From assembly GCF_022846255.1 (NCBI RefSeq), contig NZ_AP025682.1: a stretch of 64,000 nucleotides of DNA; one strand, 5' to 3'. This document shows, piece by piece, positions 3,177-10,727 of the stretch; positions within the stretch are counted from its first letter, which is position 1, and every line of letters starts with the position of its first letter. The translations under genes and the position numbers were made by a program. The notes beneath the pieces were generated by a model that had not been told where the DNA came from, made no database searches, and saw only the letters and a list, made by a program, of their open reading frames with translations. The DNA comes from Escherichia coli (lineage in GTDB: Bacteria; Pseudomonadota; Gammaproteobacteria; Enterobacterales; Enterobacteriaceae).

Positions 3177-5828
3177 ATGACAGCCTTTCGTGCCGCATTT
3201 AAGGCATATCGTATGCATCAGGTGTTAATACTGCCTCGCTTTGCACGGCTTACCTTTGCCCTTGGCTTAGCAACTGCGGTTTTTCCCGTTGACGCAGAGT
3301 ATTATTTTAATCCACGGTTTTTAAGCAATGACCTTGCTGAATCTGTCGATTTATCTGCCTTTACTAAGGGACGCGAGGCCCCACCTGGTACATATCGGGT
3401 CGACATTTATTTGAACGACGAATTTATGGCTAGTCGGGATATTACTTTTATTGCAGATGATAATAACGCAGATCTCATCCCATGCCTGAGTACAGACCTT
3501 CTTGTCAGTCTTGGCATAAAAAAATCAGCATTATTAGACAACAAGGAACATTCGGCAGAAAAACATGTGCCGGACAACAGCGCATGCACACCACTTCAGG
3601 ATCGTTTGGCTGACGCATCATCTGAGTTTGATGTTGGTCAGCAACATCTGTCACTCTCCGTTCCGCAAATATATGTCGGCAGAATGGCTCGCGGCTATGT
3701 TTCTCCTGATCTGTGGGAAGAAGGAATAAATGCCGGGCTACTAAACTATAGTTTTAATGGTAATTCTATTAATAACCGTAGTAACCATAATGCAGGAAAA
3801 TCCAACTATGCATATTTGAATTTACAGAGTGGCATCAACATTGGTAGTTGGCGACTGCGCGATAACTCAACGTGGAGTTATAACAGTGGGAGTAGCAATT
3901 CATCTGACAGCAATAAATGGCAGCATATCAATACGTCGGCTGAACGTGACATTATTCCGTTACGCTCACGGTTAACAGTGGGTGATAGTTATACCGATGG
4001 CGATATTTTTGACAGTGTGAACTTTCGTGGCCTTAAAATAAATTCAACAGAAGCGATGTTGCCCGATAGCCAACATGGTTTCGCTCCGGTGATTCATGGT
4101 ATTGCTCGTGGCACCGCACAAGTGAGTGTAAAACAGAATGGATACGATGTTTATCAGACTACTGTCCCACCCGGCCCTTTTACTATTGATGATATCAACT
4201 CTGCGGCCAATGGTGGTGATCTGCAAGTAACCATAAAAGAGGCAGACGGCAGTATTCAGACATTATATGTTCCTTATTCGTCTGTTCCGGTTCTCCAACG
4301 TGCTGGATATACGCGTTATGCACTTGCCATGGGGGAATATCGTAGTGGAAATAACCTGCAAAGCACCCCCAAGTTCGTACAAGCAAGCTTGATGCATGGT
4401 CTGAAAGGAAACTGGACACCTTATGGCGGAATGCAAATTGCAGAAGATTATCAGGCCTTCAACCTTGGTATTGGTAAAGATTTAGGACTTTTTGGTGCCT
4501 TTTCTTTCGATATTACGCAGGCCAATACGACACTTGCAGATGACACCCGTCACAGCGGACAATCGGTTAAATCCGTCTACAGCAAATCCTTCTACCAGAC
4601 GGGAACCAATATCCAGGTCGCAGGATATCGCTATTCTACGCAAGGTTTTTATAACTTATCCGACAGTGCATACAGTCGAATGAGTGGTTACACCGTCAAG
4701 CCTCCTACCGGAGACACCAGTGAGCAGACACTATTTATTGATTATTTTAATCTGTTCTACAGTAAGCGTGATCAGGAACAAATAAGCATCTCTCAGCAGC
4801 TTGGAAATTACGGTACGACATTTTTCAGTGCCAGTCGCCAAAGTTACTGGAACACGTCACGCAGCGACCAGCAAATATCATTTGGATTAAATGTGCCGTT
4901 TGGTGATATTACGACTTCGCTGAATTACAGCTATTCCAATAATATATGGCAAAACGATCGGGATCATTTACTCGCTTTTACGCTTAATGTTCCCTTTAGT
5001 CATTGGATGCGTACAGACAGTCAGTCGGCATTTCATAATTCAAACGCCAGTTACAGTATGTCAAACGATTTGAAAGGCGGCATGACCAACCTATCAGGGG
5101 TTTATGGCACTCTGCTACCGGATAATAACCTGAATTATAGTGTTCAGGTCGGTAACACCCAAGGGGGTAATACATCGTCTGGCACCAGTGGTTACAGTTC
5201 TCTTAATTATCGTGGAGCTTACGGTAATACGAATGTCGGTTACAGTCGGAGTGGTGACAGCAGCCAGATTTATTACGGAATGAGTGGTGGGATTATTGCT
5301 CATGCTGATGGCATCACCTTTGGACAGCCGCTGGGCGACACAATGGTTCTGGTTAAGGCTCCTGGCGCTGATAATGTCAAAATAGAGAACCAGACCGGAA
5401 TTCATACCGACTGGCGTGGCTATGCCATATTACCATTTGCGACAGAATATAGAGAAAATCGTGTCGCTCTTAACGCGAATTCCCTTGCAGATAATGTTGA
5501 ACTGGATGAAACCGTAGTCACTGTCATCCCAACTCACGGTGCTATTGCCAGAGCAACATTTAATGCACAAATCGGCGGGAAAGTATTAATGACGTTGAAG
5601 TACGGTAATAAAAGCGTTCCATTCGGTGCAATTGTCACTCACGGAGAGAATAAAAATGGCAGCATTGTCGCGGAAAATGGTCAGGTTTATCTGACTGGAC
5701 TTCCACAGTCAGGGAAATTACAGGTTTCATGGGGCAATGATAAAAACTCAAACTGTATTGTCGATTACAAGCTTCCTGTAGTCTCTCCTGGAACCTTGCT
5801 GAACCAGCAGACAGCAATCTGTCGCTAA
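3177..5828 (+). CDS. ydeT: Fimbrial outer-membrane usher (FimD-like), full length
   Basis: 883-aa ORF with usher hallmarks (YFNPRFL…, GTYRVDIYLN…, C-terminal Cys pair); a pseudogene in K-12 but intact here; exact start uncertain. Confidence 0.85.
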   Translation: MTAFRAAFKAYRMHQVLILPRFARLTFALGLATAVFPVDAEYYFNPRFLSNDLAESVDLSAFTKGREAPPGTYRVDIYLNDEFMASRDITFIADDNNADLIPCLSTDLLVSLGIKKSALLDNKEHSAEKHVPDNSACTPLQDRLADASSEFDVGQQHLSLSVPQIYVGRMARGYVSPDLWEEGINAGLLNYSFNGNSINNRSNHNAGKSNYAYLNLQSGINIGSWRLRDNSTWSYNSGSSNSSDSNKWQHINTSAERDIIPLRSRLTVGDSYTDGDIFDSVNFRGLKINSTEAMLPDSQHGFAPVIHGIARGTAQVSVKQNGYDVYQTTVPPGPFTIDDINSAANGGDLQVTIKEADGSIQTLYVPYSSVPVLQRAGYTRYALAMGEYRSGNNLQSTPKFVQASLMHGLKGNWTPYGGMQIAEDYQAFNLGIGKDLGLFGAFSFDITQANTTLADDTRHSGQSVKSVYSKSFYQTGTNIQVAGYRYSTQGFYNLSDSAYSRMSGYTVKPPTGDTSEQTLFIDYFNLFYSKRDQEQISISQQLGNYGTTFFSASRQSYWNTSRSDQQISFGLNVPFGDITTSLNYSYSNNIWQNDRDHLLAFTLNVPFSHWMRTDSQSAFHNSNASYSMSNDLKGGMTNLSGVYGTLLPDNNLNYSVQVGNTQGGNTSSGTSGYSSLNYRGAYGNTNVGYSRSGDSSQIYYGMSGGIIAHADGITFGQPLGDTMVLVKAPGADNVKIENQTGIHTDWRGYAILPFATEYRENRVALNANSLADNVELDETVVTVIPTHGAIARATFNAQIGGKVLMTLKYGNKSVPFGAIVTHGENKNGSIVAENGQVYLTGLPQSGKLQVSWGNDKNSNCIVDYKLPVVSPGTLLNQQTAICR

Positions 5829-6947: not shown

Positions 6948-7862
6948 ATGGGTAAAACATTCAGTATAAAGGTCCTGTTCGGTATTTATCTTCTATTAAT
7001 TGCAGGCAAAGTTTTTGCCTTCAGTTGTAATGTCGATGGCGGGTCAAGTATTGGAGCAGGTACAACCTCTGTTTATGTTAATCTCGATCCTGTAATACAA
7101 CCGGGCCAGAATCTGGTTGTAGACTTGTCTCAGCATATAAGTTGCTGGAATGATTACGGCGGCTGGTACGACACTGATCATATAAACCTGGTACAAGGAT
7201 CAGCTTTCGCAGGCTCCCTACAGTCATATAAAGGATCACTGTACTGGAATAATGTGACCTACCCTTTCCCGTTGACGACAAATACCAACGTATTGGATAT
7301 TGGTGATAAGACACCGATGCCATTACCGTTAAAACTCTATATTACCCCAGTCGGAGCGGCTGGTGGAGTTGTCATAAAAGCAGGGGAAGTTATTGCCCGT
7401 ATTCATATGTATAAAATTGCCACGTTAGGAAGCGGAAATCCGCGTAATTTTACGTGGAATATTATTTCAAATAACAGTGTTGTTATGCCAACAGGCGGTT
7501 GCACCGTTGATAGTCGTAATGTCACCGTGAATCTCCCGGACTTTCCTGGAAGCGCAGAAATACCCCTTGGTGTATATTGCTCTAGCGAACAAAAGCTCTC
7601 ATTTTATCTTTCGGGTGCCACCACTGACAGTGCCCGACAAGTGTTTGCTAACACAGCACCAGATGCAACAAAAGCATCGGGCGTGGGTGTCTCTCTGATG
7701 CGTAATGGAAAAACACTGGCAACAGGAGAAAATGTCTCCCTGGGGACAGTAAATAAAAGCAAAGTACCTCTGGGTTTAAGCGCAACCTATGGACAAACAG
7801 GAAACAAGGTTGCAGCCGGAGCCGTCCAGTCAGTCATTGGTGTCACTTTTATCTATGAATAA
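6948..7862 (+). CDS. ydeQ: Fimbrial tip adhesin (FimH-like two-domain adhesin)
   Basis: 304 aa with signal peptide; last gene of operon; length matches K-12 ydeQ. Confidence 0.85.
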
Positions 7863-7934
7863 TTGTGATTTTGACATTAGTCTATGCGCTCCATTCACGA
7901 AAATTGCGCGGATAATTATTTTGTGAAGGCTATT

Positions 7935-7952
7935 ATCCTACACTTGTAAGAA
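7935..7952 (+). promoter_or_regulatory. EvgA box upstream of ydeP
   Basis: aTCCTACA-CT-TGTAAGAA matches the EvgA inverted-repeat consensus TTCYTACA-N2-TGTRGAA. Confidence 0.6.
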
Positions 7953-8051
7953 AATCCGCGCACAATTGAAGCCAGAGTCTTATTTTTTATATTGAGAATT
8001 ATGTTAATTTAAACCCTATGAGAGATGATGCTTAACTTATCGTATTTATAC

Positions 8052-8110
8052 TACTCTATTATTTAACGATAATAGAGTAAAAATAGTAAGAGAGTAGTCC
8101 CCTACTCTTA
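8052..8110 (+). repeat. Perfect 11-bp inverted repeat (tactctattat-ttaacg-ataatagagta) plus further TACTCT/AGAGTA copies
   Basis: Read directly in the ydeQ-ydeP intergenic region; four copies of the hexamer in alternating orientation. Confidence 0.5.
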
Positions 8111-8200
8111 TATATCCATGTTGACGATAAACCCTATGTATATACTGTGCATCATCGCTATTACAAATCCTAATAATTCATTTCCACACAGGATAAGCAG

Positions 8201-10480
8201 ATGAAGAAAAAAATTGAATCCTACCAGGGAGCTGCCGGTGGTTGGGGTGCTGTTAAATCCGTAGCGAATGCAGTACGTAAGCAGATGGATATACGCCAGG
8301 ATGTTATTGCCATGTTTGACATGAATAAGCCAGAGGGCTTTGACTGTCCGGGATGTGCATGGCCAGATCCTAAGCACAGTGCGTCATTCGACATTTGTGA
8401 AAACGGCGCAAAAGCAATCGCCTGGGAAGCCACGGATAAGCAGGTAAATGCCTCTTTCTTTGCTGAGAATACGGTTCAATCATTACTTACCTGGGGAGAT
8501 CACGAGCTTGAGGCTGCGGGACGTCTCACTCAGCCTTTGAAATATGATGACGTCAGCGACTGTTACAAGCTATTAAGCTGGCAACAAGCTTTCGACGAAA
8601 TTGGCGAACGCCTTCAAAGCTATAGTGATCCCAATCAGGTTGAATTCTATACTTCGGGCCGCACTTCCAATGAAGCTGCCTTTCTTTATCAGCTTTTTGC
8701 CCGTGAATACGGGAGCAATAACTTCCCCGACTGCTCCAACATGTGCCATGAACCGACCAGTGTGGGTTTGGCAGCGAGTATCGGTGTAGGTAAAGGGACC
8801 GTGTTGCTGGAAGACTTTGAGAAATGCGATTTAGTCATTTGCATTGGGCATAACCCTGGTACAAACCACCCTCGCATGTTGACTTCGTTGCGCGCTTTAG
8901 TGAAACGGGGAGCGAAAATGATCGCCATCAATCCTCTACAGGAACGTGGCCTGGAGCGATTTACCGCACCGCAAAACCCGTTTGAAATGCTGACGAACTC
9001 TGAGACTCAGTTGGCCAGTGCCTACTACAACGTGCGCATTGGTGGTGATATGGCGTTGCTCAAGGGGATGATGCGCCTGTTAATTGAGCGCGATGATGCT
9101 GCAAGCGCCGCAGGTCGGCCCTCATTGCTGGATGACGAATTTATTCAAACGCATACCGTCGGCTTTGACGAGCTACGCCGTGACGTGCTCAATTCCGAGT
9201 GGAAAGATATCGAACGTATTTCTGGATTAAGTCAGACTCAAATCGCCGAACTGGCTGATGCATATGCCGCTGCCGAACGCACCATTATCTGTTACGGAAT
9301 GGGGATCACTCAGCACGAACATGGTACCCAGAATGTACAGCAACTGGTCAATCTGCTGTTGATGAAAGGTAACATTGGCAAGCCTGGTGCGGGTATCTGC
9401 CCACTACGAGGTCACTCTAATGTACAGGGCGACCGAACCGTCGGTATCACCGAGAAACCGTCTGCAGAGTTTCTGGCTCGCCTGGGTGAGCGCTATGGTT
9501 TCACCCCACCTCATGCACCTGGACATGCTGCAATTGCCAGCATGCAAGCAATATGTACGGGGCAGGCTCGCGCATTGATCTGCATGGGGGGCAACTTTGC
9601 ACTGGCAATGCCAGATCGGGAAGCGAGCGCTGTACCGTTAACGCAATTAGATCTGGCGGTACACGTTGCCACTAAGCTTAACCGCTCTCATCTGCTGACC
9701 GCACGGCATAGCTATATTCTGCCGGTTCTGGGACGTAGCGAGATTGACATGCAAAAAAGCGGTGCGCAGGCGGTAACCGTTGAAGATTCAATGTCGATGA
9801 TTCATGCCTCGCGTGGTGTGTTAAAACCCGCCGGTGTAATGCTGAAATCAGAGTGTGCAGTGGTCGCGGGAATCGCGCAAGCAGCACTACCCCAGAGCGT
9901 GGTAGCCTGGGAGTATCTGGTGGAAGATTATGATCGCATTCGCAATGACATTGAAGCTGTGCTGCCAGAGTTTGCCGACTATAACCAGCGCATCCGTCAT
10001 CCTGGTGGTTTTCACCTGATAAACGCAGCAGCTGAAAGGCGCTGGATGACGTCGTCAGGTAAGGCTAATTTCATTACCAGTAAAGGGCTGTTAGAAGATC
10101 CCTCTTCAGCGTTTAACAGTAAGCTGGTCATGGCGACAGTACGCAGTCACGATCAGTACAACACGACGATTTATGGTATGGATGATCGCTATCGAGGGGT
10201 ATTCGGTCAACGAGATGTGGTCTTTATGAGTGCTAAACAAGCTAAAATTTGCCGTGTAAAAAACGGCGAAAGAGTTAATCTTATTGCACTCACGCCAGAC
10301 GGTAAACGTAGCTCACGCCGCATGGATAGATTAAAAGTGGTCATTTACCCTATGGCTGACCGCTCACTGGTGACCTATTTTCCAGAATCGAATCACATGC
10401 TAACACTTGATAACCACGATCCATTAAGTGGCATTCCTGGCTATAAAAGTATTCCGGTTGAATTAGAACCATCAAATTAA
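8201..10480 (+). CDS. ydeP: Acid-resistance molybdopterin oxidoreductase (formate dehydrogenase-like, FdhF family)
   Basis: 759-aa ORF matching YdeP length and sequence; no in-frame TGA. Confidence 0.92.
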
Positions 10481-10598
10481 TTCGCCTCCTCATTTCTTCT
10501 GCTGTCATCCGCACAGCAGAAGAATTCCTCATTGACTATTATCGCGCAATTTGCTCACATGGATTAAATTAAACCACACACTATAAGATATAAACTTC

Positions 10599-10616
10599 TG
10601 CCTACAGCTGTAAGAA
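10599..10616 (+). promoter_or_regulatory. EvgA box upstream of safA-ydeO
   Basis: TGCCTACA-GC-TGTAAGAA matches the EvgA consensus. Confidence 0.6.
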
Positions 10617-10727
10617 ACTCCGCTCAGTACTGAAGTACCCGTCCTATTTCCTCTATTCTCCAGCCTGTTATATTAAGCATACTGATTAACGATGCTTAAC
10701 GTCATTCGTTTAATAAACACATTTGAA

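Follow-up and report, generated by a model that had tools for sequence, protein, structure and literature searches.

An EvgA box upstream of ydeP in Escherichia coli and its predicted position in an EvgA-dependent promoter

The window, i.e. the entire 64,000-nucleotide stretch of Escherichia coli DNA that was analysed (contig NZ_AP025682.1), carries a short inverted repeat in the intergenic region between ydeQ and ydeP, and the question raised by this locus is whether this repeat constitutes a binding site for the response regulator EvgA, and from which position it might then activate ydeP. The downstream open reading frame was assigned as ydeP through the annotation of a 100%-identical record of E. 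coli Nissle 1917, its product being annotated as a putative molybdopterin oxidoreductase for acid resistance with homologues that carry PF00384. In the Nissle 1917 record, the genes follow in the order ydeS-ydeR-ydeQ, then ydeP, safA, ydeO, ydeN and ydeM, with the same orientation as in the window, and K-12 MG1655 displays the same gene arrangement around ydeP. The ydeQ-ydeP intergenic region (338 nt) is 100% identical to that of Nissle 1917, and the stretch around the repeat is AT-rich (32.5% GC versus 47.9% for the window). The features concerned are:

7935–7952, + strand: EvgA box of the ydeP promoter, ATCCTACA-CT-TGTAAGAA (consensus match and matrix score)
8201–10480, + strand: ydeP coding sequence, 759 aa, the gene downstream of the EvgA box (open reading frame and annotation)
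10494–10524, + strand: perfect 12-bp hairpin, TTCTTCTGCTGT / ACAGCAGAAGAA, starting 14 nt past the ydeP stop codon (inverted-repeat search)

The hairpin is probably the ydeP terminator, which would separate ydeP from the safA-ydeO unit.

An earlier note on this DNA had transcribed the sequence of the box and claimed that it matches the EvgA inverted-repeat consensus. At 7935–7952 the window reads ATCCTACACTTGTAAGAA, exactly as transcribed, and comparison with TTCYTACA-NN-TGTARGAA (TTCYTACANNTGTARGAA) gives a single mismatch (A for T at position 1) in 16 specified positions. The box consists of two 8-base arms that form an imperfect inverted repeat around a 2-base spacer, and its half-sites (ATCCTACA, and TTCTTACA as the reverse complement of the right half) agree at six of eight positions. 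A distance of 73 nt separates it from the preceding ydeQ stop codon and one of 248 nt from the ATG of ydeP, which has the same orientation, and the claim of a site upstream of ydeP is thus borne out by the annotation of both Nissle 1917 and K-12. When at most one mismatch was allowed, two matches were observed in the 64-kb window versus none in 100 dinucleotide-preserving shuffles, while the analytic expectation at this threshold is 0.0027 matches per 64 kb, placing the consensus match far beyond chance. Both matches stand upstream of known EvgA targets (ydeP and safA-ydeO), and allowing up to three mismatches still yielded only the same two.

The box pattern was additionally searched for, with up to three mismatches, in K-12 regions with genes reported to be activated by EvgA. 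Besides the orthologous K-12 ydeP and safA positions, which also match, the following sites were identified:

emrK-evgA intergenic region (K-12): box pattern with 2 mismatches
yfdX-frc intergenic region (K-12): box pattern with 0 mismatches
upstream of yfdX (K-12): two boxes, with 1 and 3 mismatches
upstream of yegR (K-12): box pattern with 1 mismatch

The pattern therefore precedes every other checked K-12 operon for which direct activation by EvgA has been reported (safA-ydeO, emrK/evgA, frc, yfdX and yegR). Outside the promoter regions of the searched K-12 EvgA loci only one match was detected, with three mismatches and inside the ydeO coding region. Upstream of gadE in K-12, no box was present at up to three mismatches; the sole match at the gadE locus falls inside mdtE and is probably a chance occurrence. 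A weight matrix was then trained solely on the emrK/evgA, frc, yfdX (two boxes) and yegR sites, leaving out those of ydeP and safA. This matrix ranked 7935–7952 first in the window (24.3 bits) and 10599–10616 second (21.1 bits), the next best position scoring 6.6 bits; being built from a small sample, the matrix is noisy, and 21.1 bits was also attained in one of 30 mononucleotide shuffles. The two boxes of yfdX (K-12 L003:16501–16556) lie 38 bp apart: the proximal box, which is the weaker one (3 mismatches), stands at the standard distance to a good -10 (TATGAT), while the centre of the better distal box (1 mismatch) would fall near -112.

The second-ranking position belongs to safA-ydeO, the other operon in the window that the literature places directly under EvgA, and is accompanied by a predicted promoter:

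10599–10616, + strand: second EvgA box, TGCCTACA-GC-TGTAAGAA (TGCCTACAGCTGTAAGAA), 1 mismatch, 21.1 bits, identical in K-12
10666–10674, + strand: predicted extended -10 of safA-ydeO, TG-t-TATATT, with a predicted start near 10681–10682

This box is situated 111 nt upstream of safA, in the safA-ydeO promoter region, and shares with the ydeP box its motif, its orientation and its spacing to the -10. The similarity extends beyond the box, since the 95 nt that follow each of them (7953–8047 and 10617–10711) are identical at 56 of 95 positions (59%) in an ungapped comparison; among 127,621 placements in the window this one ranks first, ahead of a runner-up with 45. Blocks common to the two promoters are TCCGC-CA, TGAAG, GTCYTATTT, TGTTA and GATGCTTAAC. 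This likeness suggests that a single module, reaching approximately 30 nt into the transcript, was duplicated to give the ydeP and safA promoters. They differ in their predicted leaders (about 46 nt for safA versus about 183 nt for ydeP) and in the left half-site, which begins with TG in safA and with AT in ydeP. The safA promoter is additionally repressed by PhoP (10.64898/2026.05.06.723403).

To define where the box stands relative to the core promoter, six promoters were aligned on the box and oriented to the regulated gene, i.e. ydeP and safA from the window, and emrK, frc, proximal yfdX and yegR from K-12. A -10-like hexamer begins 53–54 nt past the box in all six. For ydeP, the corresponding elements are:

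8002–8010, + strand: predicted extended -10 of ydeP, TG-t-TAATTT, at +50 to +58 from the box, the same offset as in safA
8018, + strand: predicted ydeP start (A), 8 nt after the -10 hexamer, equal to -178 from the K-12 ATG by alignment

The predicted start at 8018 is, by alignment to K-12, the base equivalent to the 5' end of the ydeP leader transcript used in PMC11210196, which begins at -178, a position that the paper does not call a mapped start. With the start at 8018, we infer that the box spans -83 to -66 and is centred at about -74.5, a class-I-like position for an upstream activator. What marks 7935–7952 as an EvgA box is thus its motif, its location before an EvgA-induced operon, its score against a matrix of independent sites and its constant spacing to the promoter elements.

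The same alignment was used to examine the 70 nt that follow the box. Five columns show the same base in each of the six promoters (CA at +9/+10, TC at +26/+27 and T at +31), as against 0.21 expected from circular-shift controls, none of 5000 of which reached five; subsets of four promoters without obvious common ancestry retain the excess (P = 0.0004–0.047). In the ydeP promoter, these columns correspond to:

7961–7962, + strand: invariant CA, 9–10 nt past the box, common to the six EvgA-box promoters
7978–7983, + strand: TCTTAT, 26–31 nt past the box (about -40 to -35), of which TC and the final T are invariant in the six

The bases at +26 to +30 read TCTTA, TCCTA, TCCTC, TCTGA, TCTGA and TCCTA, and five of the six fit TCYNA, which equals bases 2–6 of the EvgA half-site and also the right half of the RcsB box, TN(G/A)GAN4TC(T/C)NA (PMC7913699). 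While the right half of the RcsB box is thus matched in five of six promoters, its left half (TNRGA) is, by inspection, absent at the required 4-nt spacing from all six, nor does the 18-bp EvgA box itself fit the RcsB pattern. An RcsB homodimer site at or near the box was consequently rejected, as neither the 18-mer nor the region around TCTTA (7978–7982) has both halves. RcsB is nonetheless required for the acid induction of ydeP (PMC7174508) and acts at safA independently of GadE (PMC5651002); furthermore, Johnson et al. 2011 (cited in PMC5651002) speculated on a partnership between EvgA and RcsB. Given this genetic need and the speculated pairing, we infer that the TCYNA element (about -40 to -36) is a candidate place for a second contact by a regulator, adjoining the -35. 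From the sequence alignment, EvgA promoters appear to share a rigid module consisting of the box, CA 9–10 bp on, TC(Y)NA 26–30 bp on and the -10 at 53–54 bp. The fuller proposal, in which TCYNA could dock either RcsB or a second EvgA protomer and the ydeP and safA promoters derive from a duplicated module of ~110 bp, is put forward tentatively and may well prove wrong. A conserved half-site-like element by the -35 offers a concrete and testable candidate for contact by RcsB or a second EvgA. Secondary EvgA boxes at a 20–22-bp periodicity downstream are not claimed, as the candidates inspected gave only 8–9 matches in 16 positions in an inconsistent register.

The box is also flanked by a perfect, G+C-rich 9-bp inverted repeat (TGCGCGGAT / ATCCGCGCA, 7905–7913 and 7954–7962, 40 nt apart). 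The right arm (7954–7962) begins 2 nt past the box and includes the invariant CA. About 0.05 repeats of 9 bp would be expected by chance in the ydeP box region (an estimate), and the repeat is absent at safA.

A different promoter could in principle be served by the same box. A generic -35/-10 scan missed TG-t-TAATTT and gave TTGAAG-16-TATATT (7966–7993) instead, with the -35 at 7966–7971, the -10 at 7988–7993 and transcription beginning near 8000; in that case the centre of the box would fall near -57, with its edge 13 bp from the -35 hexamer, implying a closer and more class-II-like contact. This pair of hexamers has nine of 12 matches and a 16-bp spacer, and TGAAG recurs at an equal offset in safA (as CTGAAG). 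However, the scan found two sites where 2.3 were expected from shuffles, and emrK, frc, yfdX and yegR lack TGAAG and TATATT at these offsets, while all six promoters have the hexamer at +53/54. The K-12 leader transcript (PMC11210196) likewise begins at the equivalent of 8018 rather than 8000, with the reservation noted above as to -178. Since the scan hexamers are absent from the other four promoters and the scan performs no better than on shuffles, the -57 geometry is ranked second to that at -74.5 and is considered unlikely.

Two other explanations concern the repeat itself. Recognition mainly by another regulator of the NarL/FixJ family, such as RcsB or GadE, rather than by EvgA, would accord with the genetic role of RcsB at ydeP and safA described above (PMC7174508, PMC5651002) and with the mutual resemblance of NarL/FixJ-family half-sites. 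Against this, the box does not fit the RcsB consensus (PMC7913699; by inspection), the motif is specific to EvgA-regulon promoters in K-12, the gadE promoter, which is the one controlled by RcsB and GadE, has no upstream match at up to three mismatches, and the secondary literature attributes binding to EvgA; such a regulator is thus a very improbable main ligand. Less credible still is a repeat without a regulatory role, i.e. a chance palindrome or the remnant of a hairpin or terminator of the ydeQ fimbrial operon. An AT-rich setting 73 nt after the ydeQ stop codon, and a box conservation within E. coli that is not above background, would be compatible with such an origin. Chance is effectively refuted by the statistics, with 0.0027 matches expected per 64 kb and two seen, both at EvgA targets, and a repeat arisen by chance would hardly stand at a fixed spacing to promoter elements in six promoters. 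Folded as RNA, the repeat at 7935–7952 would have a 2-nt loop, two internal mismatches and no U-run (by inspection), and a scan of 7800–8260 gave no terminator-like site on the + strand.

The preferred reading, to which a probability of about 0.9 is given, is thus that 7935–7952 is the site for a dimer of phosphorylated EvgA, predicted to be centred about 74.5 bp upstream of a weak, EvgA-dependent sigma-70 promoter of ydeP. This feature is the EvgA box of K-12 ydeP, which is already known. The repeat is presumably, in K-12, the 18-bp inverted repeat of Masuda and Church (2003), who are said to have found the motif by means of AlignACE, to have gel-shifted six sites and to have mutated the ydeP and b1500-ydeO repeats (in the K-12 allele). 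Mutation of the repeat reportedly lowered the EvgA-dependent expression of ydeP, and EvgA footprints have reportedly been obtained by Itou et al. (2009). For the direct EvgA-dependence of ydeP we rely on published work, which describes the gene as a direct target of EvgA regulation (PMC7174508) and as activated by EvgA (PMC11210196, PMC7174508, PMC4283999). According to a secondary statement, EvgA binds the promoters of ydeP, safA, yfdX, frc and yegR (PMC8147483); every gene known to be under direct EvgA control has an EvgA binding site (PMC4283999), and inverted repeats bound by EvgA are marked before yfdX and yfdWUVE (PMC3720670). The further claim of the earlier note, that the site is consistent with EvgSA activation of acid-resistance genes, is supported by the recurrence of the pattern at K-12 EvgA targets, the first rank in the matrix search and the published work (PMC7174508, PMC8147483).

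The proposed course of events is as follows. EvgA, which belongs to the NarL/FixJ family and is the response regulator of the acid-sensing two-component system EvgS/EvgA, would bind 7935–7952 as a phosphorylated dimer, each 8-base half-site (TTCYTACA) taking one helix-turn-helix domain. The promoter would be a weak, activator-dependent sigma-70 promoter with an extended -10 (TGtTAATTT, 8002–8010), a -35 of poor quality and transcription beginning near 8018. When the pH is mildly acidic, bound EvgA-P may recruit or stabilise RNA polymerase, either by contacting the alpha C-terminal domain or by means of additional regulator protomers that reach towards the -35, and the outcome would be a ydeP transcript with a leader of about 183 nt. 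The second copy of box and promoter (10599–10682) would drive safA-ydeO in the same manner. The site would thereby link acid sensing by EvgS to the induction of ydeP and, via its twin at safA-ydeO, to the whole glutamate-dependent acid-resistance cascade that E. coli uses to survive stomach acid. A useful comparison is BvgA, the closest characterised homologue of EvgA, which has sites at Bordetella virulence promoters such as that of fha. As a matter of general knowledge, these sites likewise comprise an inverted repeat, far upstream of a poor -35, to which a dimer of a NarL/FixJ-family protein binds with high affinity, and the CA (+9/10) and TCYNA (+26–30) of the EvgA promoters could be weaker secondary contacts similar to those in BvgA arrays. 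In contrast to such arrays, the conserved positions of the EvgA promoters show, by inspection, no clean 22-bp repetition of the full box. The annotation of the site is therefore correct and useful though nothing new, and the modest additions made here are the polymorphism of the box, its fixed distance to the promoter and the element by the -35.

With respect to that polymorphism, three box alleles were encountered among seven sampled E. coli, namely ATCC..CT (window), ATCC..CC and AGCC..CC (K-12), the variable positions being 7936 and 7944. The orthologous K-12 site (L001:6731–6748) has G at box position 2 and C at spacer position 10, where the window has T in both cases, so that the K-12 allele carries two consensus mismatches versus one in the window allele; both differences affect weakly specified positions, and one of them moves the window allele towards the consensus. 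The two sites share their intergenic position, their flanks, the core CCTACA-NN-TGTAAGAA and the downstream gene, and the 338-nt region aligns end to end with that of K-12 at about 94% identity. Among 5,426 complete E. coli genomes, the exact 44-mer with the window allele was present in 1,379, O157:H7 strains included, and that of K-12 in 1,748, while about 1,783 further genomes contain a sequence within two mismatches of the K-12 44-mer, with ATCC..CC found in all four that were sampled. The K-12 allele, which is the one used in published work, is the poorest consensus match of the three, and could contribute to strain differences in acid induction. No variation was seen among the seven E. 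coli in the core CCTACA-NN-TGTAAGAA, in the CA, in TCTTAT or in the extended -10, while positions in the spacer between -35 and -10 vary. Two of the 18 columns of the box are variable, as are 30 of the 338 of the intergenic region, and with variation in the box thus on a par with that around it, conservation within the species is no evidence either way on function.

Beyond E. coli, a scan of a genome contig collection with CCTACANNTGTAAGAAAATC returned 10 matches, where about 9 would be expected by chance (an estimate), and every one of them came from an unrelated taxon; none was in Escherichia although K-12 contains the pattern, the collection evidently being without E. coli. The nearest YdeP homologues listed outside Escherichia/Shigella are those of Edwardsiella tarda (86% aa identity), an ENA contig (74%), and Hafnia and Providencia (about 70%), and no intermediate enterobacterial relatives of YdeP were among the matches listed. 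A homologue with 93% identity (P0001) was rejected as a non-Escherichia relative, as it proved to be an ordinary E. coli locus. The ydeP loci of Edwardsiella and of the 74% ENA contig have other gene neighbourhoods and no box at up to three mismatches; in Edwardsiella the gene adjoins moaA-E. This distribution suggests that ydeP is patchy or horizontally transferred and, as the nearest outside homologues stand in other contexts without a box, the EvgA wiring of ydeP appears to be specific to the Escherichia/Shigella locus.

Two minor observations concern the sequences on either side of the promoter. Upstream, the fimbrial usher open reading frame (a ydeT homologue, 3177–5828) is intact in the window and in Nissle 1917 (883 aa), and the ydeQRST-type fimbrial operon thus appears to be complete in the window strain; in K-12 MG1655, the annotated ydeT is just an usher-domain gene of 1,149 bp that adjoins the pseudogene yneL. 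The region 7800–8300 gave no Rfam family match at E <= 1. Downstream, the predicted 5' leader of ydeP contains two strong hairpins (8052–8079 and 8090–8109, with stems of 12 bp and 8 bp, respectively), which together form a larger mirror-image palindrome with possible alternative pairings (MFE -41.7 kcal/mol, z = -3.15). The leader haplotypes of the window and K-12 differ by a 5-bp indel (8047–8051) just upstream of these hairpins and, within the stems, by one C:G pair changed to A:U (8054/8077) and one A:U pair changed to G:U (8061).
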